From Candidatus Methylomirabilia bacterium (GTDB lineage: Bacteria > Methylomirabilota > Methylomirabilia > Rokubacteriales > CSP1-6), in contig JBHIBG010000003.1 of the NCBI GenBank assembly GCA_046758965.1, forward strand, positions 13,829 through 77,828: a stretch of 64,000 nt of DNA, written 5' to 3'. The notes beneath the pieces are model-generated. The model was not told the origin of the DNA. It made no database searches and saw only the letters and a list, made by a program, of their open reading frames with translations. Numbering within the stretch: the stretch's first letter is position 1; each line of letters starts with the position of its first letter. Made by a program: the position numbers and the translations under genes. This document shows, piece after piece, positions 12,180 through 62,513 of the stretch.

Positions 12180-13763
12180 CTACAGCTTGACGAGCTTGGC
12201 CGAAACGATGTCGGGCATCGCCCGGATTTCGGCCAGCACCGGGTCGGGGATGGGATCGTCCAGGTTGAGGATCGACACCGCCCGACCTCCCCGGCGCTCG
12301 CGGCCGAGCCGCATGCCGGCGATGTTGATCTGGTGGAGACCGCAGAGCGTGCCGATCCGGCCGATGACGCCGGGCACGTCCAAGTTGGAGAAGATCAGCA
12401 TCCACCCCGAAGGGACCGCCTCCAGGGGATAGCCGTCGATCCGGAGAATCCGGGGCTCTCGCCGGTGGAAGAGCGTGCCGGCCACCCCCCAGGCGCCCCT
12501 GTCGGTCGAAAGCTCGGTCGAGATCAAGCTCGCGTAGTCCTCGCACTCGGTGGCGGAGGCTTCCACCACGCGGATTCCCCGGGCCTTGGCCAGGGTTGGC
12601 GCGTTCACGTCGGTGACGTTCTCCTCCAGGATCACGGAGAGGAGCCCTTTGAGGAAGGTGACGGTGAGAAGCTCGGTTTTCAGCCCCGCCACCTCCCCGG
12701 CGTACTCGATTCGCGCCTCCCGCATCCGACCTTCGGCGATCTGAGCGAGAAAGCTCCCCAGCTTTTCCGCCAGCATCAGGTAGGGCGCCAACTCCTTGTA
12801 GGTCTCGGCGTCTACCGACGGGACGTTCACGGCGTTCCGCGTGATCCCCCGCACCAGGACATCGGCGACCTGCTGGGCGATGGCGAGGGCCACCTGGGTC
12901 TGGGCCTCCTCGGTGGAGGCGCCCAGATGGGGGGTGATGACCATCTGATCCAGGGCGAGCAGCGGGTGGTCCGGTGGGAGCGGCTCCAGCTCGAAGACGT
13001 CGAGCGCGGCGCCGGCCACGCGTCCGCTCTCGATCGCTTCGATCAGGGCCATCTCGTTGATGACCCCGCCGCGGGCGCAGTTGATCAGGCGGACGCCCTG
13101 CTTCATCCGGGCGAACTGGGCCGGGCCGAGGAAGTTCCGCGTCTCCTTGGTGAGCGGCGTATGGACGGAGATGAAGTCGGAGCGCTCGAGGAGCTCATCC
13201 AGCTCGACCACCTCCACCCCGATCTTCTGCGCGGTCTCAGCAGTCAGGTAAGGGTCGTAGGTGATGACCTGCATGCGAAGCCCGAGGGCGCGCCGGGCCA
13301 CCTCCGAGCCGATCCGGCCGAGCCCGATGATCCCGAGGATCTTGTTGTAGAGCTCGACGCCGGCGAAGCGCGCCTTCTCCCACCTGCCGCCCTTGAGCGC
13401 CCCGTGGGCCTGGGGGAGCTTCCGGGCCAGGGCCAGGAGAAGGCCGATCGCGTGCTCGGCCACCGCGATGGTGTTGGCCCCGGGAGCGTTCATCACGATG
13501 ATCCCGCGCTGGCTGGCCGCCTCGACATCAATGTTGTCCACGCCGGCTCCGGCTCGCCCCACGACGACCAGATCGCGGGCCGCCTCCAGGACCTTGGCGG
13601 TCACCTTGGTGGCGCTGCGCACGATCAGCCCCTCGACATCCGCGATCCGGCCGCAGAGCTCGGCTTCGGGGAGCGCGCCGGCCACCTCGACCAGAAGACC
13701 CTCCTTGCGGAGGGCCTCACCGCCGACCTCGTGGAGCCCGTCGGTGATAAGCACTTTCTTCAT
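12180..13763 (-). CDS. serA: D-3-phosphoglycerate dehydrogenase
   Basis: 527-aa 2-hydroxyacid dehydrogenase with the GxGxxG NAD motif (GLGRIGSEVA) and a C-terminal ACT-like region. Confidence 0.9.
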   Translation of the reverse strand: MKKVLITDGLHEVGGEALRKEGLLVEVAGALPEAELCGRIADVEGLIVRSATKVTAKVLEAARDLVVVGRAGAGVDNIDVEAASQRGIIVMNAPGANTIAVAEHAIGLLLALARKLPQAHGALKGGRWEKARFAGVELYNKILGIIGLGRIGSEVARRALGLRMQVITYDPYLTAETAQKIGVEVVELDELLERSDFISVHTPLTKETRNFLGPAQFARMKQGVRLINCARGGVINEMALIEAIESGRVAGAALDVFELEPLPPDHPLLALDQMVITPHLGASTEEAQTQVALAIAQQVADVLVRGITRNAVNVPSVDAETYKELAPYLMLAEKLGSFLAQIAEGRMREARIEYAGEVAGLKTELLTVTFLKGLLSVILEENVTDVNAPTLAKARGIRVVEASATECEDYASLISTELSTDRGAWGVAGTLFHRREPRILRIDGYPLEAVPSGWMLIFSNLDVPGVIGRIGTLCGLHQINIAGMRLGRERRGGRAVSILNLDDPIPDPVLAEIRAMPDIVSAKLVKL

Positions 13764-14901
13764 GACTTGTCTGTCAGGACCTTCTGGGCCGCGCGGATCG
13801 AGGTGCCCAGATCAACGGGGTGCCCGAGCTCCGCCAGCACCTGCTCGAGCGCTGACAGCGCCACGATCACGTCGAAGTCGCCCACGTACCCCATGTGGCC
13901 GAGACGGACGAGCGTGCCCTTCATCTCCCCCTGCCCGCCCGCGATGGTGATGTTGTGGGTCTTCGCGAACCCCTTCACCACCACCTCGCCGTCGATCCCC
14001 CGCGGTGCGACCAGGGCGGTGATCGCCGGGCTCGGGGTGGCCTTCGCGAAGAGCTCGAGCCCCAGCGCCTCGACCCCCGCGCGCGTGGCGCGGGCCAGCC
14101 GGTCGTGACGCCGGAAGAGACTCGCGAGCCCCTCGGCCTCCAGCATGGTGAGGGCCTGACGAAGCCCGACGATGATGGAGACCGCAGGGGTGAAGTGGGC
14201 CTGGTTCTTCTGCTGCGCCTCGAGCTCTTGAGCCAGGTCGAAGTAGTACCTGGGGAGCGTGGAGTCCTTGGCCAGCCGCCAGGCCTTCGCGGAGAGCGCG
14301 CAGAACGCGAGCCCGGGCGGGAGCATGAGCCCCTTCTGGGAGCCGGCCACCACGAAATCCACGCCCCAGGCGTCCATGGGGAGGTCGGCCACGCCCAGAC
14401 TGGAGACGGCGTCCACCACCAGGATCGCGGGGGTGGTCCGGGTCACCCGAGCATAGCCTTCCACATCATGCAGGACGCCGGTGGACGTCTCGCTGTGCTG
14501 GCAGAAGACCGCCTTGACCCCGGGACTCTTCCTGAGCTCCTCGGCCAGCCGATCCGGAGGCACGGTGTGGCCATAGGGAGCCTCCAGCGGGATCACCTCG
14601 ACCCCGTAAGCCTGGCAGATCTCAGCCCACCGCTCGCCGAACTTCCCCGCCCGAACCACGATCGCGCGGTCGCCGCGACAGAGCATGTTGACGACAGCGG
14701 CCTCCATGGCGCCTGTGCCGGAGGCGGCGAAGAGGACGGGCTCCTCGCGGGTCTGAACGAGCCTCTTGAGCCCGGCGCGAACCTCGCTGAAGAGCGCCTC
14801 GTAGGCCGGCGTGCGGTGGTGGATGATGGGCTGGGCCATCGCGAGGAGCACTTCCTGGGGGACCGGCGTGGGCCCCGGCGCCATCAGGTAATACTTCTTC
14901 A
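13760..14901 (-). CDS. class V aminotransferase (serine-pyruvate / phosphoserine aminotransferase type)
   Basis: Starts MKKYYLMAPGPTPVP, preceded by an AAAGGAGA Shine-Dalgarno. PLP-lysine region GSQKGLMLPPG. Its 4-nt overlap with serA suggests an operon. Confidence 0.8.
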
Positions 14902-51825: not shown

Positions 51826-53219
<1,394 letters not shown>

Positions 53220-53229
53220 GGCCCTCCGC

Positions 53230-53267
53230 CTCTTCCACCTCCCCGTCCCACTCGATGGCGATGCCGC
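53230..53267. repeat. ~38-bp direct repeat, copy 1 (duplicate of osmC 3' end)
   Basis: ctcttccacctccccgtcccactcgatggcgatgccgc at ~53230 matches ~58269-58306 (osmC codons GIAIEWDGEVEE, antisense) with 1 mismatch. Confidence 0.75.
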
Positions 53268-53510
53268 AAGGTCCTCAGGCCGGGCGCGCAGGCGCTTCCC
53301 CCCCTAGATGATTCTGCTCTTCTGCCGCCTTCCCGCCTCTGCTAGCATGCTGATGGGCGTGGGACTGACCGGGCTACATGCCAGTGGTCACGCTCGAAGA
53401 GAGAGAGGATTCCTCTGGCGCTTTACCTCGGTGATCGGTTCGAGCTCCCTGTCACGCGTGAGGCGTGGCAATCGGGACACATTCCGCTCAATGGGGGATT
53501 CTGCCTCCTC

Positions 53511-55499
53511 GTGGATGCCACGGGCGAGCCCATCCCCGTGACCCTGAGGGCAGAGTCGGGGCAATCCGCCGTGGGGGTGTGGGATGGTGGGGGCGGGGTG
53601 CTTGACGTGCCAGGGTTGCGCGAGCTGGTCTTGATCACGGGCGCCTCAGGGCGACTCACGCTCCAAGTCGAGGAGGTCAAGGCCCCTACCTTCAGGGTTG
53701 GCCGTGAGGGCCGGACCCACGAGGACGACCCCGTGGATTTCTCCCCCAGAGAAATCGGCAGGGTTCCCGTGAGGTTTGATCCGCACGACGTGGAGATCCT
53801 CTCGGAGCTCGCGGAAGGGGCGCACGCCCCTCTGGAAGTCTACCAGCTCAACCGGTGGGCCCACACGATCGCCCTCACCCCCGGATTTGAGGAGCTGATC
53901 TCCCTTGCGTCCCTCAGGGAGGTGATCCCGTACGAGCACCAGCTCGCCGCCGTGAAGACTGTCCTCAACCGCATGCGAGGGCGGGCCCTGCTGGCTGACG
54001 AGGTAGGGCTGGGAAAGACCGTGGAGGCGGGGCTGATCCTCTCGGAGCTGCTGCGCAGGCGGCTGGCCCGCCGCGTGCTGGTCCTGGTGCCGCCCGGATT
54101 GGTGACCCAGTGGCAGGAGGAACTGCGTCGGAAGTTCTACCTCGACTTCGTGACCCACGACGCCGAGCCGTTCCGGCAGGAAGGCCCCGAGGCCTGGAAA
54201 CGGTTTGAGCGCGTGGTGGCCTCGTTTCACACCGCCAAGCGGCCGGAGCACGCCCGGGTGATCCTCCAGATCCCCTACGACCTGGTGATCGTGGACGAGG
54301 CCCATCACCTGAGAAACGCCCGCACGGTCCTCTGGCAGTTCGTCAATGTGCTGAGGAAAACCTATCTCCTCCTCCTCACCGCCACGCCGGCGCAAAACGA
54401 TCTGGAGGAGCTGTTCAACCTGGTGACGCTCCTGCAGCCGGGGCAGCTCAAGACTCTCAGGGCGTTTCGCCGGGATCATGTGGCCCGGGGCGACAAGCGC
54501 CAGCCGCGAGATCCGGAGGGCTTGAGGCGCCTGCTCTCCGAGGTCATGGTGAGGAACCGGCGGGCCACCACCCCGGTGGCGCTCACGCGCCGGGTTGCCC
54601 GGACCGTCATCGTTGAGCCGACCGCCGCCGAGCAGGAGCTGTACGTCGGGCTCTCCGACTTCCTTCGGGAGCACTACCGGCGGGGATCCGGAATCACCCG
54701 GATGATGGTGCAGACCCTTCAGATGGAGTTGGGTTCCAGCCCCCGGGCCGCCGCCCTCACTCTGGAGCGGCTCCTCTCCCAGCAGTGGGAGCTGTCGGTC
54801 CGCGACGGGCTGCACCGCTTCCTGGAACACGCCCGGAACATCGTCGACGATGCCAAGAGCCGGGCTCTCCTGGGTCTTCTCCGATCGTGGAGCGACAAGC
54901 TCCTGATCTTCACTCGCTTTCGTGCTACACAGGAGCACCTGGCCCGCCTCCTGCGGGAGACGGGGGAGCCATGCGCCCTCTATCACGGGGGCTTGCCCCG
55001 GCTGGAGAAGGAGGAGGTGGTCCGGGCCTTTGAGGGCCCCTGCCGGGTCCTGATCTCCACGGAGGCCGGCGGCGAGGGGCGCAATCTCCAATTCGCGCAT
55101 GGCCTTGTGAACTACGACCTGCCCTGGAACCCCATGCGGATCGAGCAGCGGATCGGCCGCCTCTCTCGGGTCGGGCAGACCCGGGACGTCTACGTGTTCA
55201 ACCTGGTGGCCCGTGGGACCATCGAGGAGACCCTCCTGGAGATCCTCGACGCCAAGATCAACATGTTCGAGCTGGTGATCGGAGAGATCGACATGATCCT
55301 CGGGCAGCTCGCCACCGACCAGGACTTTGAGGAGTTGGTCACGGACCTGTGGCTCACCTCCGAGGACCGCGAGGCCTTCCGCGTGAAGATGGAGTCCTTC
55401 GGGGAGCAGCTCCTCAGGGCCAAGCAGGCCTACCTCGGGATCAGGGAGCTTGAGGACCGGATCTTCGGTGACGCGCTGGCGCCCGGAGGGGGCGCGTGA
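53511..55499 (+). CDS. SNF2-family (DEAD/DEAH-like) helicase/ATPase with unique ~130-aa N-terminal domain
   Basis: Walker A ADEVGLGKT. Motif II is DLVIVDEAHHLRN, motif III is LLLTATP, and the helicase-C region is YDLPWNPMRIEQRIGRLSRVGQ. Alternative start codon at 53511. Confidence 0.8.
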   Translation: MDATGEPIPVTLRAESGQSAVGVWDGGGGVLDVPGLRELVLITGASGRLTLQVEEVKAPTFRVGREGRTHEDDPVDFSPREIGRVPVRFDPHDVEILSELAEGAHAPLEVYQLNRWAHTIALTPGFEELISLASLREVIPYEHQLAAVKTVLNRMRGRALLADEVGLGKTVEAGLILSELLRRRLARRVLVLVPPGLVTQWQEELRRKFYLDFVTHDAEPFRQEGPEAWKRFERVVASFHTAKRPEHARVILQIPYDLVIVDEAHHLRNARTVLWQFVNVLRKTYLLLLTATPAQNDLEELFNLVTLLQPGQLKTLRAFRRDHVARGDKRQPRDPEGLRRLLSEVMVRNRRATTPVALTRRVARTVIVEPTAAEQELYVGLSDFLREHYRRGSGITRMMVQTLQMELGSSPRAAALTLERLLSQQWELSVRDGLHRFLEHARNIVDDAKSRALLGLLRSWSDKLLIFTRFRATQEHLARLLRETGEPCALYHGGLPRLEKEEVVRAFEGPCRVLISTEAGGEGRNLQFAHGLVNYDLPWNPMRIEQRIGRLSRVGQTRDVYVFNLVARGTIEETLLEILDAKINMFELVIGEIDMILGQLATDQDFEELVTDLWLTSEDREAFRVKMESFGEQLLRAKQAYLGIRELEDRIFGDALAPGGGA

Positions 55500-56563
55500 G
55501 GCCGCCCGGCGGGATCGAGGCGTTTACCCTCACGGCGATCGAGCGCCTGGGTGGCGCGGTCGAGAAGCAGGCCGACGGGCTCTACACCTTCCTCTGGCCG
55601 GCCGAGGCTACGGGAGAGCTAGAGACCCCTCAGCTCGCTTTCGATCCTGAGGTGATCGATGAGGAGCCGGGCGCCGAGCTGGTCACGTTCGCCAGCCCCA
55701 TACTGGAGGAGATCGTCCAGCTTGCCACGGCCTCCGGTCGGGTCGCCCGGGCTTTCCTGAACGCGATTGCGAGCGCTTCGCGCGGAACGGCCGAGCGGCT
55801 GGCGTGGTCGTATCGTTTCCTCGACGCTTCCTGGACGGCCGAAGCCGGAAGGGCGTGGTGGCTCCCGGTGGGGCTCTTCCTGTTCCGAGCCCGGTATCTG
55901 TCCGATTCCCGAGAGGAGGATCTGGTGGAGGTGGCCATGAACCTGGCCGACGGGCGCATCCTCCGGCGCCTGGCCGAGGCGATCGAGCGCTATGGGCTCT
56001 CTCCCGATCCCCCGGAGGCCTGGCCGATGATGGCGGAGCTGCCAGCCAGCCAGGCCTACACGGTGGCGCGGACCGAGCTGGAGCGGAAGATTCTCTCGCC
56101 CCTCGGCCGGCGGCGTCGGGAGCTGGAGTCAAGGCTCGCGCGCGAGAGCGGACGGGCCGGGGCGTACTACGAGGAGCTGATCCGAGAACTCGAGGAGCAA
56201 CAGAAGAGCCTTCCCGCCGATGATCCCGGGCGAGCACCGCTGCAGTCGAAGCTGAGGGCCATTCGCCTTGAGCGCGAAGGCCGGCTCGCTGAGCTCCGGG
56301 GTAAGTACAAACTGGAGGCGGAGGTGGCGCTGCTGAGCGTCCTTCGTCTCTATCTGCCCCGGGTGGTCTTCCCGGGGAGGCTCACGGGGAAGCGCCAGGC
56401 GGCCGAGCTCACGCTGGTCTGGGACCCGGTGGAACAGGCCGGAGAGCCGGCCCCCTGTCGGCGCTGCCGAGGGCTCACCTACGAGATGGGTCTCCTTCGC
56501 TCCGGGGCGGTTGGCTGTCTCCCTTGCCTCGACGCAGAGGCCAACCAGCAAGGCAGGAGGTAA
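55496..56563 (+). CDS. hypothetical protein, coiled-coil with C-terminal CxxC-x16-CxxC zinc ribbon
   Basis: The GTG start overlaps the helicase stop (GTGA), implying co-translation. A Glu/Arg-rich predicted coiled-coil occupies the middle. The C-terminus reads PCRRCRG...CLPCL. Confidence 0.6.
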   Translation: MRPPGGIEAFTLTAIERLGGAVEKQADGLYTFLWPAEATGELETPQLAFDPEVIDEEPGAELVTFASPILEEIVQLATASGRVARAFLNAIASASRGTAERLAWSYRFLDASWTAEAGRAWWLPVGLFLFRARYLSDSREEDLVEVAMNLADGRILRRLAEAIERYGLSPDPPEAWPMMAELPASQAYTVARTELERKILSPLGRRRRELESRLARESGRAGAYYEELIRELEEQQKSLPADDPGRAPLQSKLRAIRLEREGRLAELRGKYKLEAEVALLSVLRLYLPRVVFPGRLTGKRQAAELTLVWDPVEQAGEPAPCRRCRGLTYEMGLLRSGAVGCLPCLDAEANQQGRR

Positions 56564-56699
56564 CAGCGACAGTAGCGAGCCGCTCCATGGACAAGAAGAG
56601 ACGCGAGGCCGAATGGGCCGAGGCAAAGCGCCGATGTCGCCTGAATGCCGAGACCCTGCAGATGGCGAAGGAGCTGCGGCTCAACCCACGAACGGAAAG

Positions 56700-57272
56700 C
56701 TGACCGCCTGGCCGCTCACTTCATCATCGACTTTTCCCGAAATCAGATAGTGGTTCGAGGCGGTAAGGGCAACAAGGACCGCTATACGATGCTTCCCGCA
56801 GCAGTCAAAGAACTCCTGCTGCAGCACCTCCAGGCGGTCAAACGCCGGCACGACGATGACCTCAAGCGCGGCCTCGGCCGGGTCGGCTTGCCCAACGCCC
56901 TCGAACGCAAATACCCAAACGCGGGGAAAGCACGGGGATGGCAGTGGCCGCTTCCCGCCTCAAGCCATTACACCGATCGGGTGACGGGAGAACGGCGCCG
57001 CCACCACATCCACGAATCGGTTCTCCAGAGGGCGATTAAAGAGGCCAGGCTCAAAGCCGGCATTGTGAAGCCAGCCAGCTCCCACACGTTGCGGCATTCC
57101 TTCGCCACTCGCCTGCTCGAGCATGGTTACGAACCCTGACCGTCCAGGAGCTCCTGGGCCACAGCGATGTCAGCACAACGATGATCTACACCCATGTTTT
57201 GAACCGGGGCGGCAGAGGAGTTCGCAGCCCGGCGGATGCGCTGACCATGGCGGTCAATCCGTCGCAGCCATA
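56700..57272 (+). pseudogene. intI: integron integrase (IntI) remnant, 5'-truncated and frameshifted
   Basis: QIVVRGGKGNKDRY and the IntI-specific insertion LPNALERKYPNAGKARGWQWPLPA...RRHHIHE...[21 protein letters not shown] are present. A frameshift near 57137 then continues in another frame as [31 protein letters not shown]. The N-terminal ~170 aa are absent. Confidence 0.75.
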
Positions 57273-57501
57273 AGGGGATTATGCTGACCATCGTCGCGGT
57301 GTTTGTCGGCGTCCGTGCTTTTGGAGAGGTTTGACAACGCATTGGAAACACGAGAGAATCGCCGCCGCTCGGTAGAGTTGCGAATAGGGGATGCGATCAC
57401 CATACTCAATAGTTAGCCGTCGCGCATTGATCGTCTAGCACGTTCGTGGTACGGTTCGGGTATCCTGAGCGTGCTGCGTAGCGGCAGCGTGGAGGGCATC
57501 G

Positions 57502-57684
57502 ATGTCAGGGAGCACCGCCAAGCAGAGGGTCCTCGAGGCGATCGAGAAGCTGCCAGCCGACGCCACGCTGGAAGATGCCATAGAGCGCCTCGTCTTCTTG
57601 GCGAAGATCGAGCGGGGGCTGGCGGAGCTGGACGCCGGCAAAGGCGTCGAGCACACCGAGGCTAAGCGCCGACTCGTCCGGTGA
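57502..57684 (+). CDS. putative addiction-module antitoxin (TIGR02574-like small antitoxin)
   Basis: 60-aa protein (AKQRVLEAIEKLPADATLEDAIERLVFLAKIERGLAELDAGKGV), immediately followed by a RelE/ParE-like reading frame. Confidence 0.65.
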   Translation: MSGSTAKQRVLEAIEKLPADATLEDAIERLVFLAKIERGLAELDAGKGVEHTEAKRRLVR

Positions 57685-57901
57685 CCCGGGTCATCTGGGC
57701 ACCCCAGGCCATCAGCGTATCGTCGGCGCGGTGACCCGACTTGAGAGCTTCCCTCGTTCCGGGCGAGTGGTACTAGAGGTTGGTGACGAGTCCCTCCGCG
57801 AGATCGTCCACGGCAGCTACCGAATCGTGTACCGGCTCAAGTCGGGGGTCGTCGAGGTTGTCACAGTGTTTCACGGTGCCCGGTTGTTTCGGCTCGACTG
57901 A
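57681..57901 (+). pseudogene. RelE/ParE-family toxin, internally deleted and frameshifted
   Basis: The N-terminal peptide VTRVIWAPQAISV stops at 57734. A second frame encodes the C-terminal RLESFPRSGRVVLEVGDESLREIVHGSYRIVYRLKSGVVEVVTVFHGAR. The middle of the toxin is missing. Confidence 0.6.
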
Positions 57902-57917
57902 AGCAGCGGTGGTGAGC

Positions 57918-57989
57918 GTCTAACTTCCCGATGAACCCGCCGCCGGCTCCGCCTCGCTTCGCCGCCGCGGGTTATCGCGAGCGTTAGCC
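57918..57989 (+). repeat. attC-like imperfect inverted repeat (candidate integron cassette recombination site)
   Basis: GTCTAAC (R''-like) ... aacccgccgccggc / gccgccgcgggtt (internal inverted repeat) ... GTTAGCC (R'-like). The whole span is ~72 bp and sits directly 3' of the toxin remnant. A second GTTAGCC occurs at ~57412. Confidence 0.3.
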
Positions 57990-58012
57990 CGCCGAAGTAA
58001 CACGTAGACGCA

Positions 58013-58260
58013 ATGAAAGGCTTATTCCACCTGAAGAGCGCCAAGGACCTCCTCGCCAAGCTGCGCCATGACTTCGAGCGCCTTCAGCGCGACCCTGTCG
58101 ACGCTTATGCTGCCTTCGACTTCCGCGTGACCGCGAGACATCTACCGGAATGGCTCTATCCGGGCGACCCTAGAAAGCAGGACGTGCCGTTCCAGAATAA
58201 CCTTATTCTTCAGGTCTGCCGGCAGATCGCTGATGGCGCCAAGCATATCTATGCTCCAGG
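58013..58260 (+). CDS. hypothetical protein, probably 3'-truncated
   Basis: The first ~80 codons (MKGLFHLKSAKDLLAKLRHDFERLQRDPVDAYAAFDFRVTARHLPEWLYPGDPRKQDVPFQNNLILQVCRQIADGAKHIY) look protein-like. The ORF then runs antisense into osmC with Pro/Arg-rich nonsense. Confidence 0.3.
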
Positions 58261-58262
58261 CG

Positions 58263-58727
58263 CTACTCCTCCTCCACCTCCCCGTCCCACTCGATGGCGA
58301 TGCCGCGTTGGACAGACTGTGCAGCCGGGCAGCCTTTTTCGTGAACCTCGATGGCCCGGAGAGTCTCCTCGCGCTTGCCCTTGGGAACCTTGACCTTGTA
58401 GTGCACCTTGATCTTCGTGATCAGCGGCTTGCCGTCCACGTTCTCGATGACTCCCTCGACTTCGGAGGACAGGCGGTCGGGCTGGCTCGGGATCTTCCGC
58501 GCTGCTAGCGCCCCGGCTAGCGTGCCGGTCATTCACCCCGCCACCGCGGCGATGACATGGTCAAGCGTGGTAGGCAGCTCCTCCTCCGGCTCGACGCCGT
58601 AGAACTTCTTGATCCCCCCGTGGACGCCGTATCGCACCGGCTCGGGGAAGGCCTCGATGTAGGCCCGGCGAACCGGCCCCTTGTCTTTGATGATCTTCAC
58701 CCTGGAAATGTGAATCAGCTCACCCAT
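58263..58727 (-). CDS. osmC: OsmC/Ohr-family peroxiredoxin with in-frame TGA at the peroxidatic Cys position (candidate selenoprotein, or nonsense-mutated pseudogene)
   Basis: Two adjacent ORFs, 58533..58727 (...LDHVIAAVAG) and 58263..58532 (MTGTLAGALAARK...HEKGCPAAQSV...), are separated only by a TGA at 58533-58535. Aligned to OsmC (LIGAAHAAC*FSMALS ... AKAGCPVSQ), the TGA falls exactly at the Cys59-equivalent codon. The second Cys is conserved. Confidence 0.6.
58269..58306. repeat. ~38-bp direct repeat, copy 2 (native osmC 3' end)
   Basis: Same sequence as copy 1. The two copies bracket a ~5.0-kb segment (helicase operon, intI remnant, TA cassette, truncated ORF). Confidence 0.75.
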
Positions 58728-58843
58728 AGCTGCTCCTCCTTGTGCCGCCTCGTCAACGCAGGCTTACTGGATCGTGATCCGTCACGCAGCACTATACTCG
58801 CCGGAGACCCAACGCGCTATTGTACAGGAAACCTCCCGGAGGC

Positions 58844-59854
58844 ATGGCTCGCTTGAGGTTCGAAGAGCTGAAGCGGTTCCTCGAGCGGTCGGCCGTGGCG
58901 GCCCACGCCCCCGACCGCGTGACGATGAGAGAGCGCTACCGCGGGGTCCTGGTGGGCGTGGCGGCCGGCAATGCGCTGGGCCTGGGCGTCGAGGGGTGGT
59001 CACGCAGGCTGATCGAGGCGCGGTTCCCCAACGGCGTGAGGGAGGCAGACGCCGCGGAGCGCGAGCGCCCCTGGGATGACGATCTGGCCCAGACCGCGAT
59101 CCTGGGGGAGGCCCTGCTGGCCGGGGAGGAGCTGACGCCTGAGGATCTGGCCTCGCGCCTTCTCCGCTGGGCGTACGACAACGGCCGCGGCATGGGGAAC
59201 CTGAGCTGGCGCGTACTCTCGGAGCTGGCTTCGGGAACGCCGCCAGCGGTCGCCTCTCGCCGGGTCTGGGAGCGGGACGGCCGCGCCCCGGCGGGCAACG
59301 GAGCCGTCATGCGGTGCGCTCCGGTCGCGCTCCGGTGGCGGACGTCCGGTCACCGGCTGGTGGAAGAGACGGCAACGAGCGCGCTTGTGACTCACTACGA
59401 TCCCCGCTGCGTCTGGTCCGCCGTAGCCTTGAACGTCGCGCTCGCCCTGTCCCTCGGCGGAGCCACTCCGGACCTGGAGGAGCTGGCGACAGCGCTGGAC
59501 CGCGCCGGCGCACCGGTCGAGGTGGGCGCGGCGATTCGATTCGTGCGGGGGCGCGCTCTCCCCGAGCTGCTCCTCGATCACCGCGCCGATATGGGATACA
59601 CGCTCAAGGCCATGCAGGTGGGGCTCTGGTCGCTGCAGCAGGAGCTTGATTTTGAGGAGGTGCTGGTTCGCGTGGTGAACGCCGGAGGAGATACCGACAC
59701 CAACGGCGCCGTGGCGGGAGCGGTCATGGGGAGCCGGGTCGGGGTTTCCGGCATCCCATCCCGTTGGGTGGCGAACATTCGGGAGGCCGGCCACCTGCTG
59801 GATCTGGCGGACCGCCTCTTTGAGGCGTGTGAGGGCGCGGGGGCTACCGGATGA
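58844..59854 (+). CDS. ADP-ribosylglycohydrolase family protein
   Basis: ARH fold markers are present. The C-terminal GDTDTNGAVAGAVMG matches the DraG/ARH metal-site motif. The start is probably MARLRFEEL at 58844. Confidence 0.8.
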   Translation: MARLRFEELKRFLERSAVAAHAPDRVTMRERYRGVLVGVAAGNALGLGVEGWSRRLIEARFPNGVREADAAERERPWDDDLAQTAILGEALLAGEELTPEDLASRLLRWAYDNGRGMGNLSWRVLSELASGTPPAVASRRVWERDGRAPAGNGAVMRCAPVALRWRTSGHRLVEETATSALVTHYDPRCVWSAVALNVALALSLGGATPDLEELATALDRAGAPVEVGAAIRFVRGRALPELLLDHRADMGYTLKAMQVGLWSLQQELDFEEVLVRVVNAGGDTDTNGAVAGAVMGSRVGVSGIPSRWVANIREAGHLLDLADRLFEACEGAGATG

Positions 59855-59973
59855 CGAACTCGAGCCGACGATGCGCCTGGCGCGGGGCTGCGTCGACTTC
59901 CCCGGGGCTCTCGGCTCTCGCAACGATGAACCCGAGGTACTGCCAGCCCTCCGGAGGCGGCACCAGCTCCTGG
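59791..59973. repeat. ~183-bp direct repeat, copy 1 (3' end of ARH gene plus duplicated 3' fragment of ATP-grasp gene)
   Basis: ccacctgctggatctggcggaccgcctc...ggaggcggcaccagctcctg is ~95% identical to 62330..62513. It contains the antisense coding sequence for ...PPPEGWQYLGFIVARAESPGEVDAAPRQAHRRLEFVIR*. Confidence 0.8.
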
Positions 59974-59974
59974 C

Positions 59975-60490
59975 GAGCTGGGCGTGACCGCGATCCTGCA
60001 CACCTAGGATCAGAACCTCTCCCAGCACATCCATGTGCACTGCGTCGTGACGGGCGGGGCCCTCTCGTCCGACGGCGCGCGCTGGATCCGGGCCTGGGCC
60101 GGCTTTCTATTTCCGGTCGGGACCCTGTTCAAGGTGCTCCGGGGAACCTGCCTCGCCGGCCCCGCGGCCTTCACCGCCTGGCTCGACCGCCTCCGCCACC
60201 AGGCCTGGGTGGTGTACTGCAAACAGCCTTTTGGCGGTCCCGAGCAGGTGCTCGCCTACCTCGCCGCTACACCCACCGCGTGGCGATCTCCAACGAGCCC
60301 CTTGTCAAGCTCCAAGACGGGATGGTGCGCCCCCGCTGGCGCGACTACGCCGACGGCGACCGGGTGAAGGTCCTCGAGCTCGAGGCGGCGGAGTTCATCC
60401 GGCGCTTTCTGCTCCACGTCGTTCCGGACGGCTTCGTGCGCATCCGCCACTTTGGCCTCCTGGCCAACCGTACGCGCCCCGTGTTCCGCT
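59975..60490 (+). mobile_element. IS91-family (Y2 HUH rolling-circle) transposase remnant: 5'-truncated, nonsense plus frameshift
   Basis: ...GVTAILHT*DQNLSQHIHVHCVVTGGALSSDGARW...WVVYCKQPFGGPEQVLAYL[frameshift]RRYTHRVAISNEPLVKLQDGMVRPRWRDYADGDRVKVLELEAAEFIRRFLLHVVPDGFVRIRHFGLLA. The conserved ILHTW shows TGG->TAG. A 1-nt deletion lies before RYTHRVAISN. The remnant begins right at the repeat boundary. Confidence 0.7.
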
Positions 60491-60624
60491 CCCGCCCAGC
60501 TTGTAGCATACCCCCGCCGGGGATAGAATCCCCCTATGGCCCCAGGGGCCCCGGTTCAGTACAACTGGTTTTATCCGTCAAGCTGCTGCACGACGGATAA
60601 AAGCCTCAGTGTTAGAGGAGCAAC

Positions 60625-61068
60625 GTGAAGAGAAAGGTGACGCGCAGGGGCACGCAAGACATCTGCCTCGCGGCGATCGTTGGTGCAGACGTATACCGCG
60701 TTTGGACTGACATGCTGCAGTATCTCGTGCCACAGGGGCGGACGCATCGGCTTGCTCCTCTTGTTGCAGGGATGCTACGGTTTGCGGCGGAGCGCGCGTT
60801 TCGTAAACACCGTGGGCGTCCGCCGAAGGGATCGCTTGCAGAGGCGCTGGTCTTCGCGGACGAGTTCGAGGAGGACGAAGAGGACGCACCGGATCTCGGC
60901 ACGACCCCGCCGGGACCCGCGCGGACATTACTGTCGGCGGCTACGGTTCGGCTTTTCCGCGACGCGAAGGTCAAGTACATCCGGACGAGCGCGCGGGGGG
61001 GCAGATACAGCATTGTCGATTCCGCACTTGCGGAATACCACCACTGGTTCGCGATGCCATGGGAATAG
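60625..61068 (+). CDS. hypothetical protein
   Basis: 147-aa ORF inside the inserted segment with an acidic stretch (EFEEDEEDAPD). No recognisable domain. Confidence 0.3.
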   Translation: MKRKVTRRGTQDICLAAIVGADVYRVWTDMLQYLVPQGRTHRLAPLVAGMLRFAAERAFRKHRGRPPKGSLAEALVFADEFEEDEEDAPDLGTTPPGPARTLLSAATVRLFRDAKVKYIRTSARGGRYSIVDSALAEYHHWFAMPWE

Positions 61069-61287
61069 CTCACGCTCTGAACGCCCGCGCGCGGACTAAC
61101 ATGTGCATACACCTGCCGGCCGGCCGATGGGCTTCGACAGCCGCCCGCCTCGCCTCCAGGCCCGCCGCAGGTGATGCCGGCGTTAGACTGGTGGACGTGC
61201 TGCGACTCCGCCTTGGCGTCGCGCAACATTGGCACCATGCGCGCTGCGATGGTTCCGGCCCGCCGCCGATGGGTGTAAGATGTCCGG

Positions 61288-61527
61288 GTGAGTCCGACAG
61301 TCTTTCGCCAGAGGGGTTTTCGCTTCTACTTCTTCTCGCGCGAAGAGCCCCGCTTGCATGTCCACGTGCATCACGCGGACGGAGAAGCGAAGTTCTGGCT
61401 TGAGCCCGAGATCGAGCTGGCGCAGAACTACGGCCTTGGCCCTCGCAGGCTAGCCACCGCTCTCGATCTCATCCGGAGGCATGACCATGAGATCCGCACT
61501 GCGTGGAAGAAGCATTTCGGAGGTTGA
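61288..61527 (+). CDS. DUF4160 family protein
   Basis: MSPTVFRQRGFRFYFFSREEPRLHVHVHHADGEAKFWLEPEIELAQNYG is the typical DUF4160 N-terminal signature. Confidence 0.6.
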   Translation: MSPTVFRQRGFRFYFFSREEPRLHVHVHHADGEAKFWLEPEIELAQNYGLGPRRLATALDLIRRHDHEIRTAWKKHFGG

Positions 61528-61828
61528 AGTCACCAACGTGTCGCAGCATGGGTTCTGGCTTCTCGTAGGCGGCCGTGAGCTCTTCCTGCCCTTCGAGAAG
61601 TTCCCCTGGTTCAAGCGTGCGCCGGTCGGTCAGCTCCTGAGAGTCGAGCAGCCGCATCCCATGCATCTGTATTGGCCTGACCTTGACGTAGATCTGGCCG
61701 TCGAGTCGATCGAGTTCCCGGAACGTTTCCCTCTAGTGAGTCGAGCACGGCCTAGCAACGCGCTCCAGCGGCCGCGCACGAGGCGGGCTCCTGGCAAGGG
61801 GAAAAGGGGTCGCCGCGCGCGCCGCTGA
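61481..61828 (+). CDS. DUF2442 family protein (partner of DUF4160)
   Basis: EVEVTNVSQHGFWLLVGGRELFLPFEKFPWFKRAPVGQLLRVEQ...LYWPDLDVDLAVESI. It overlaps the DUF4160 gene. The start is uncertain: 61481 or 61487. Confidence 0.6.
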   Translation: MTMRSALRGRSISEVEVTNVSQHGFWLLVGGRELFLPFEKFPWFKRAPVGQLLRVEQPHPMHLYWPDLDVDLAVESIEFPERFPLVSRARPSNALQRPRTRRAPGKGKRGRRARR

Positions 61829-62329
61829 GCTTGCTCGCGGCTTCGCCACACAAGCTCGCTCAGCGGCTTAACCGCGACGCCGTTCCCATGAGCCTTGGGC
61901 TCACCTGTGCGTCATGAAAATGGCCTTGGCCATGGGGTTCCGCGGCTTTAACAGGATTTCAGGCAGTTACAGCTCTATTTTCTAAGCAGGTTCCTGACTC
62001 GCAAATTGAGAGCGCAGGCAACAGAACAGGCATTCTCAGGCCTTCTGGAGGGACGGCCAGGGCACCCCCCAAGGTACCGGACCAAGGCACGGGGCGGATG
62101 AAAAGCCTGTCAGGGCGAAAAGCTGACGACGGGTGGAGGCACCCGACGGCGAGAGGTGGGCCCGGCCCCGTCGGTGGACGCGCCACGAGCGTGGCGGCGG
62201 CATCTGCACGACGGAGCGCGGCGGAGGGCTAGGCTAGGTCCGAGCAGCTCGGTCAGGAGGCATATGGGAGAAGAGGTCACGGGGGTGGACAGCAGGCCTT
62301 GCAAGAGGGCCGGGCCTTCGCGCGGGGGA

Positions 62330-62513
62330 CCACCTGCTGGATCTGGCGGACCGCCTCCTTGAGGCGTGCGAGGGCGGGGGGGCTACCGGATGACGAACTC
62401 GAGCCGACGATGCGCCTGGCGCAGGGCTGCGTCGACTTCCCCGGGGCTCTCGGCTCTCGCAAAGATGAACCCGAGGTACTGCCAGCCCTCCGGAGGCGGC
62501 ATCAGCTCCTGCC
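62330..62513. repeat. ~183-bp direct repeat, copy 2 (native 3' end of ATP-grasp gene plus duplicated 3' fragment of ARH gene)
   Basis: Contains ...HLLDLADRLLEACEGGGATG* (an ARH C-terminal fragment, plus strand) and the authentic ATP-grasp C-terminus on the minus strand. Confidence 0.8.

Follow-up and report, generated by a model that had tools for sequence, protein, structure and literature searches.

Are the broken recombinase gene, the small toxin–antitoxin pair, and the hairpin that follow one another in the genome of a 'Candidatus Methylomirabilia' bacterium the remains of an integron? And if so, why do the cassettes lie 3′ of the integrase gene, and what part of the system could still work? 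The sequence analyzed (hereafter, the window) is the whole 64,000-nucleotide stretch of contig JBHIBG010000003.1 (GenBank assembly GCA_046758965.1, positions 13,829–77,828), and all positions below refer to it unless another contig is named. An initial annotation, made from the letters alone, had proposed an integron-integrase remnant followed by a cassette with an attC-like site. The locus is very probably a relic of a reverse (Treponema-type) chromosomal integron, and its region has ~60%–65% G+C versus 66%–70% in the flanks. From what is known of integron biology, the working form would have had an intI gene transcribed towards attI, a promoter (Pc) between the intI stop codon and attI driving the cassettes, and an integrase inserting circular cassettes by recombination between attI and the folded bottom strand of attC. 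As far as can be judged from sequence, the noncoding platform (the putative Pc and attI, with attC1 and attC2) keeps the features of functional sites.

The Integrase Gene Is a Pseudogene

The intI remnant occupies positions 56726–57273 of the plus strand and was recognized by the NCBIfam profile TIGR02249 ("integron integrase"), by PF00589 (Phage_integrase), by tblastn, and by protein identity. It is encoded in two plus-strand frames, 56645–57139 and then 57139–57273, ends at the stop codon 57271–57273, and corresponds to the C-terminal ~53% of an integron integrase (~residues 154–326 of 326–328 amino acids). The repaired translation (189 amino acids) matches TIGR02249 with E = 1.4e-69 and 234.9 bits, over positions 143–315 of the 315 of the profile and without net indel across the IntI-specific insertion. 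The ALERKYPNAGKARGWQW segment, the hallmark of the IntI-specific additional domain, lies inside this aligned stretch. The score is under the full-length cut-off of 265 because half of the protein is gone. PF00589 needs 135 residues of the remnant to cover 97 profile positions, i.e., there is an insertion of ~38 amino acids, and the additional domain is located there. Of thousands of matches of the fragment in a large protein collection, the best show 75%–85% identity, and many of these proteins, which are metagenomic, carry the source name integron integrase; in the species collection, from which the genome of the window is absent, the best IntI match has 81% identity.

One could instead take the fragment for a XerC/D- or phage-type remnant and the downstream hairpin for a palindrome unconnected with integrons, for instance a terminator or a repetitive extragenic palindrome (REP)-like element. 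PF00589 is indeed a generic family, and the XerC, XerD, and XerA models are significant, though much lower: the same translation scores 88.5 bits with XerC, 85 bits with XerD, and at most 99 bits with any Xer model, compared with 235 bits for TIGR02249, to which the IntI insertion aligns without indels. A clustering with XerC/D, named in the initial annotation, together with the lack of an attC model match, as what would speak against an integron, is therefore not what the scores show, that for IntI being far above those for XerC and XerD.

How much of the gene is missing? tblastn with three full-length IntIs (326–328 amino acids) recovers the remnant in two frames, 56726–57133 and 57139–57270, whereas residues 1–153 leave no trace anywhere in the 64-kb window. 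The start codon, the N-terminal (core-binding) domain, and the box I arginine (the first catalytic arginine) are all gone. For comparison, 80 IntI loci of uncultured bacteria were fetched (L001–L082), all oriented with intI on the plus strand. Relative to one of these, L001, a 1-nt deletion at ~57133–57139 shifts the frame, so that neither the tyrosine nor the last histidine is read in phase any longer. With its N-terminal half absent and its frame broken, the remnant is not the functional integrase by which an integron is defined, and no integrase can be made from this locus. The extra domain, the missing N-terminal half, and a frameshift near the 3′ end had all been read from the sequence by the initial annotation, and they are borne out by the TIGR02249 score and the PF00589 insertion, by the tblastn placement at residues ~154–326, and by the 1-nt lesion, respectively; alignment to the full-length IntIs maps the deletion to residues 1–~153. 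The start given for the element, 56587, was too early, as IntI homology begins only at ~56726. The plus-strand interval 56589–56703 consists of a small open reading frame (ORF) of 38 amino acids and a spacer, which adjoin the 5′ break of intI and are not IntI-derived. This ORF has no match in Pfam, NCBIfam, or PADLOC and no homolog in the fetched loci, and its origin is separate from that of the upstream helicase module: homology between the window and a metagenome contig (L089) that carries part of that module ends at 56565, directly beyond the 355-amino-acid gene.

That the integron still works in cis, with a shorter IntI made from an internal start and a frameshift bypassed by recoding, is hardly credible. 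The open frame 56645–57139 does have an ATG, and codons for the catalytic K, H-x-x-R, H, and Y motifs remain. However, the entire core-binding domain and the box I arginine, whose importance in tyrosine recombinases is well established, are absent; the tyrosine and the last histidine lie beyond the frameshift; and no slippery sequence or other recoding signal was noticed, although no search was aimed at one. We infer that the locus is inert in cis and that its cassettes would be excised, or new ones captured, only if another IntI acted in trans. Such action by an IntI encoded elsewhere has been discussed for attC clusters without an integron-integrase (CALINs) (PMC4889954).

The closest NCBI relative, the intI of L001 (10001–10663 of that locus; P0014, 220 amino acids, GCA_040961615.1), itself looks 5′-shortened when compared with the 326-amino-acid IntIs. 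It nonetheless has three well-formed cassettes after it. IntI decay may be common in the clade to which the IntI of the window belongs.

attC Sites Downstream of the Integrase

The hairpin at 57915–57992 (attC1), whose recombinogenic bottom strand is the minus strand, shows each of the features by which attC sites were recognized: R″ and R′ cores of the form RYYYAAC...GTTRRRY, an imperfect stem, unpaired bases on the R″–L″ arm, and better folding of the bottom than of the top strand. The top-strand sequence has GTCTAAC (57918–57924) as R″ and GTTAGCC (57983–57989) as R′, with the crossover between G57983 and T57984. Folded as single-stranded DNA, the bottom strand reaches −26.5 kcal/mol (z = −3.3) and the top strand −17.9 kcal/mol (z = −0.2). 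In the bottom-strand fold the AAC and GTT cores pair and are followed by an asymmetric internal loop, and two single-base bulges are found on the 3′ arm only, which is the side where the extrahelical bases of attC are expected (PMC5027507).

Two covariance models, both built with the window excluded, also recognize the site. R1 was made from the three attC sites of L001, and R2 from 69 sites in 27 other loci, all detected with R1. In the seed set, 86% of the cells are paired, and covariation is 0.387 versus 0.088 in shuffles and at most 0.083 in slid controls. attC1 scores 39.7 bits with R1 (E = 2.6e-8, for 0.9 Mb searched) and 47.4 bits with R2 (E = 8.7e-8, with filters off and over the whole 64 kb). 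R2 makes exactly three significant matches in the window, on the same strand and no farther than 4.6 kb downstream of the intI remnant, and the next best match has E = 0.44. The second site, attC2 (61091–61191, minus strand; R2 39.7 bits, E = 3.2e-6; R1 22 bits), has the top-strand cores GACTAAC (R″) and GTTAGAC (R′, 61183–61189). The third, attC3 (61747–61844, minus strand; R2 43.4 bits, E = 5.7e-7), is intact in its stem and R″ but not in its R′ box, from which the GTT core at the top-strand 3′ end is missing; in the R2 alignment the CUAAC positions at the bottom-strand 5′ end are gapped. Rfam gives nothing at gathering thresholds over the whole window, and E-value scans of 56400–58600 and 61700–62450 return chance-level matches or none, with no integron attC family among them.

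For the alternative of an unrelated palindrome, it can be said that GC-rich DNA folds easily and that the top strand of attC1 folds no better than shuffles. Yet chance folding does not account for E-values of ~1e-7 to 1e-8 against models of attC sites from other integrons, nor for three clustered and co-oriented matches in 64 kb, and a terminator was rejected, as no terminator-like site is found in 57200–58100. The IntI and Xer scores together with the attC model matches refute the combination of a Xer- or phage-type remnant and a fortuitous palindrome, to which we give practically no credence. By its sequence and predicted fold, attC1 is a true attC. This is the ~72-bp imperfect inverted repeat with a GTCTAAC...GTTAGCC core for which an attC had been proposed at 57918–57989, and independent models, R1 as well as R2, match it at 57915–57992.

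A Reverse Layout Native to the Lineage

Cassettes placed 3′ of intI on the same strand had appeared noncanonical to the initial annotation, which offered two explanations, a rearrangement or an inverted-type integron. In the window, a plus-strand intI is followed downstream by three attC sites that have their bottom strands on the minus strand, which is the reverse layout. This layout is shared by 28 of the fetched loci, including the nearest relatives for which it can be determined (L001, L003, L006, L008, and L009). The canonical layout, with attC bottom strands on the plus strand and upstream of intI (divergent), is found in 12. In a neighbor-joining tree of the IntI fragments, these 12 loci form one separate clade. 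The closest companions of the window in this tree are L001, L002, L003, and L006; L009, L004, and L005 join next, and L007 and L008 after them. Every member of this group with a determinable layout is reverse. Two loci, L018 and L029, have attC matches also in the "wrong" place or on the "wrong" strand, which suggests extra or rearranged arrays. A reverse layout has been described for Treponema (PMC3607928) and also for reverse-orientation IntIs (PMC9668308). The orientation is thus native to the IntI lineage of the window and does not indicate a local rearrangement. Of the two explanations, the inverted-type integron holds, and rearrangement fails as a cause, given that 28 loci share the layout. 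Rearrangement did happen at this locus, but it explains the truncations at both ends and not the orientation.

A Putative Pc Promoter and attI Site

Downstream of the intI stop codon, the window was aligned with L001 (a contig of an NCBI metagenome-assembled genome, or MAG), L003 (an Acidiferrales MAG), and L006 (a Nitrospira MAG). Two blocks are conserved, and by their conservation and position they may be read as Pc and attI. The first is TTGACAA, 17 nt, and GAGAAT. It includes, at 57331–57359 on the plus strand, a Pc-like sigma-70 promoter (TTGACA, 17 nt, GAGAAT) that points to attI and the cassettes, agrees with the consensus at 10 of 12 positions, and is the sole sigma-70-like site in a scan of 57200–58100. 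Both hexamers are at the same position in the three relatives. The second block, GGTCAGTATACTCAATAGTTAGCC, ends at 57418 in the window and defines a candidate attI at 57393–57418 (plus strand). The motif that closes it, ATACTCAATAGTTAGCC, has the same location in L001, L003, and L006 (with identical sequence in L006), and the first cassette ORF of the relatives begins directly beyond it. The attI crossover would then lie between G57412 and T57413. A second GTTAGCC at ~57412 had been proposed as the other boundary of the cassette; it does mark a boundary, most plausibly as the core of attI (57412–57418), but there is no second attC there. Together the two blocks give a candidate Pc/attI consensus, TTGACAA-N17-GAGAAT followed by ATACTCAATAGTTAGCC, for one clade of reverse integrons. 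In most integrons the attI site is not known (PMC4889954).

A Cassette with a Ruined Toxin and an Intact Antitoxin

Between the attI crossover and that of attC1 lies cassette 1 (57413–57983, plus strand, 571 bp), with GTTAGCC at both ends. Its first gene, at 57502–57684 on the plus strand, is an intact antitoxin gene of 60 amino acids, with 62% identity over 55 amino acids to the antitoxin of L021, a locus from a Candidatus Eisenbacteria MAG. The protein has exact copies in NCBI (MFQ5896959.1) and in two contigs of the Logan assemblies, and it has no family match in Pfam, NCBIfam, or PADLOC. The antitoxin stop codon overlaps (GTGA) the start codon of the toxin gene. The latter, at 57681–57901 on the plus strand, is a pseudogene of the ParE/RelE family, recognized by PF05016 (ParE_toxin) and by nucleotide alignment to L021. 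The ORF 57731–57898 matches PF05016 with E = 5.9e-9 over positions 37–88 of 89, i.e., only the C-terminal half of the domain is present. The alignment to L021 reveals a 67-nt deletion between 57712 and 57713, which removes ~22 codons and shifts the frame, so that the N-terminal piece ends at the stop codon 57732–57734; the C-terminal part is 66% identical to the L021 toxin. In L021 the homologous pair is intact and lies between attC matches at 13451–13557 and 14149–14218 of that locus, and the pair is therefore a genuine cassette type.

The toxin cannot be made, and cassette 1 has presumably ceased to act as an addiction module. The small antitoxin and the RelE/ParE toxin with a lost middle and a changed frame had been described correctly in the initial annotation, and its suggestion that the antitoxin persists alone fits what the sequence predicts, a whole antitoxin ORF beside a dead toxin. 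The antitoxin would be either a neutral leftover awaiting decay or a gene kept to neutralize related toxins. It is tempting to see in it an orphan kept by selection, as an anti-addiction module or as a regulator, driven by Pc at the first cassette position. The antitoxin ORF has kept its full length beside a destroyed partner gene, it occupies what would be the best-expressed position, directly after an apparently intact Pc and attI, and identical copies occur in two samples. On the other hand, these copies probably come from the same population, and the deletion in the toxin may be recent because the intI remnant has just one frameshift. On balance, selection for the orphan antitoxin seems unlikely, though it deserves consideration.

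A Broken Array between Long Direct Repeats

After attC1 the array is soon interrupted. Only the 5′ part of cassette 2 remains (57984–58257, plus strand): it includes an ORF of unknown function from 58013, with no Pfam, NCBIfam, or PADLOC family match, and has no attC. The array is cut ~270 bp into this cassette, at 58257, where the 3′ end of a minus-strand OsmC-like gene begins. The cassettes of attC2 and attC3 are found 3.1 kb further downstream, next to a fragment of an IS91-family (Y2) transposase gene (60035–60600, plus strand) that is 5′-truncated and frameshifted (PF04986 Y2_Tnp, E = 6.1e-12; NF033538 transpos_IS91, E = 6.5e-22 in the second frame). The fragment starts right past one copy of a repeat (59778–59972) and ends shortly before a cassette ORF of 147 amino acids. 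At the boundary between the two there is a core-like heptamer, GTTAGAG (60611–60617). Both Logan contigs over the IS91 region begin exactly at 60333, which hints that the insertion sequence (IS) is repeated in the genome.

The 147-amino-acid ORF (60625–61068, plus strand) is of unknown function, has no Pfam match, is identical to NCBI MFQ5896964.1, and is followed by attC2. The next cassette (61288–61828, plus strand) carries overlapping DUF4160 (61288–61527) and DUF2442 (61481–61828) genes, matching PF13711 (E = 5.6e-15) and PF10387 (E = 1.1e-15), and the DUF2442 ORF extends into attC3. The ~470 bp between the damaged attC3 and a repeat copy that starts at 62317 (61845–62316) hold no convincing ORF and have no Rfam match with E ≤ 1; the Rfam scan of 61700–62450 found neither a group II intron nor another RNA after attC3.

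Two pairs of direct repeats flank these blocks. In the first, 53219–53267 and 58258–58306 (49 nt, 92% identity) are both the 3′ end of the OsmC-like gene. In the second, 59778–59972 and 62317–62511 (195 nt, 94% identity) correspond to the 3′ ends of an ADP-ribosylglycohydrolase gene and an ATP-grasp gene. The order of the backbone would have been fumarase, OsmC-like, ADP-ribosylglycohydrolase, ATP-grasp. Two segments are inserted in it, each bracketed by one repeat pair: segment A (53268–58257), with an SNF2 helicase, its 355-amino-acid partner, the small ORF, and the head of the integron, and segment B (59973–62316), with the IS91 fragment and the distal cassettes. The repeats are too long and too diverged for target duplications of a transposition. 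Their copies differ by 6%–8% and yet the pseudogenes have few lesions, so the copies probably diverged before they were joined. This suggests an origin by recombination with a related strain's DNA, not by the action of IntI, or else the assembly of a mixture of strains.

A more specific scenario, which we regard as speculative and rather improbable, is that both integron blocks arrived as circular DNA from a related strain and were fixed by single-crossover homologous recombination with the ends of backbone genes. Such an entry would explain the 49-nt and 195-nt bracketing repeats, and the circle for segment B may stem from the IS91-family rolling-circle element. If true, this would be an environmental, chromosomal counterpart of the formation of ISCR1-type "complex integrons" and an IntI-independent route by which cassette arrays move between strains.

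Independent Assembly of the Lesions

Because the source is a MAG, one may ask whether the organism has an intact integron, the truncation, the frameshift, the toxin deletion, and the separate blocks being artefacts of assembly or binning, e.g., a strain-chimeric contig. The flanking repeats, 92%–94% identical, are of a kind that mixtures of strains can yield, and Logan contigs stop inside them, so that the left junctions have no independent confirmation. However, Logan contigs from two runs (SRR29324601 and SRR29324603) are 100% identical to 56621–58040, 56717–58302, 60333–62407, and 60333–61406 of the window. They reproduce the left break of intI, the frameshift, the 67-nt deletion in the toxin, and attC1, as well as, also at 100% identity, the right-hand junctions of the blocks (cassette 2 with OsmC, by L083, and segment B with ATP-grasp). 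Since they occur in contigs of two runs, the lesions are not errors of one assembly. Moreover, no shared k-mers that might have led to a mis-join coincide with the breakpoints. Another Logan contig, L090 (1,592 bp), encodes exactly the ADP-ribosylglycohydrolase protein and is expected, from the coordinates of the gene, to correspond to ~58277–59868. An artefact is in our view very unlikely.

Four points weigh against an integron relic as described here. The left junctions (53267/53268 and 59972/59973) are found in the MAG assembly only, the Logan contigs ending inside the repeats. The covariance models were seeded from a single related locus and then expanded, and the calibration of their E-values is rough. 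The putative attI and Pc are assigned from conservation in three relatives and from consensus matches. Finally, outside the 64-kb window, on the remainder of the 117-kb contig or elsewhere in the genome, there may be an intact intI or the N-terminal half that is missing here.

Neighboring Genes

Upstream of the small ORF, 53511–56563 encode an SNF2-family helicase and an overlapping protein of 355 amino acids. The best PADLOC matches of the helicase are BrxHI/BrxHII and DrmD, all far under full-length scores, and the 355-amino-acid protein has no family match. The two may be a two-gene defense module. In L089, a gene related to that of the 355-amino-acid protein is followed by a mutM-like gene, and the pair is therefore not normally linked to an integron. 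Searches for exact proteins gave no match for the ATP-grasp protein, the 355-amino-acid protein, or P0105.

The OsmC-like gene (58263–58727, minus strand) has an in-frame TGA at 58533–58535 (...AAVAG*MTGT...), at what we take to be the first conserved cysteine of the OsmC family. With Cys at this position, the translation scores a weak 23 bits against the NCBIfam model "OsmC-related (seleno)protein", whose cut-off is 95. No convincing hairpin is found downstream of the TGA (z = −1.0). The codon could stand for selenocysteine, or the gene could be a pseudogene.

Comparison with Known Systems

All components of this locus are of known kinds, and it leaves the current understanding of integrons unchanged. 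The new points are modest, namely, the host lineage and the candidate attI/Pc consensus. The locus also shows how CALIN-like clusters of attC sites arise, through decay of the integrase, truncation of the array, and association with an IS.

In complex class 1 integrons that carry ISCR1, an IS91-like element is combined with a duplicated 3′-conserved segment. The likeness, which we offer as a lead only, is in the IS91-family remnant beside the cassettes and in the partial duplication of adjacent DNA. Unlike in those integrons, there are no class 1 components here, the transposase is truncated and frameshifted, no oriIS or terIS was identified in the locus, and the duplicated DNA is backbone sequence whose copies are 94% identical.

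Cassette 1 resembles the ParE/RelE cassettes of sedentary chromosomal integrons, e.g., those of Vibrio, in being an overlapping two-gene operon with its own attC (PMC13108822). Toxin–antitoxin cassettes with their own promoters are known, and such cassettes stabilize large arrays (PMC13108822). In contrast with the Vibrio type, the toxin has been inactivated by the 67-nt deletion, with loss of the addiction function, and the antitoxin is in no curated family of Pfam, NCBIfam, or PADLOC.

With three attC sites spaced 3.1 kb and 0.56 kb apart and a nonfunctional intI beside them, the locus agrees with the definition of a CALIN (at least two attC sites within 4 kb). Whether IntegronFinder would class it as a CALIN or as a "complete" integron depends on the fragment being annotated as a protein, and the most fitting label for the locus is integron relic, or CALIN with an adjacent intI pseudogene. 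intI pseudogenes beside attC clusters have been described (PMC4889954, PMC13108822). Compared with such arrays, this one has just three attC sites, one of them without its R′ core, and 2.8 kb of backbone genes and the IS91 fragment interrupt it.

The closest likeness in layout is with the reverse integrons of the Treponema denticola type, in which the cassettes also lie 3′ of intI with the attC bottom strand on the opposite strand (PMC3607928). The IntI of the window is, however, only 57%–58% identical to those of the Treponema/Spirochaetaceae loci (L037 and L046), and it groups with loci from MAGs of Acidiferrales, Nitrospira, Binatia, and Elusimicrobia. A full-text search of the literature gave no paper that ties integrons to Methylomirabilota by title or abstract. 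With a Methylomirabilia MAG as host, an integrase reduced to a pseudogene, and a fragmentary array, the locus adds to the Treponema-type integrons a documented case of a decayed, reverse-layout integron in the Methylomirabilota.

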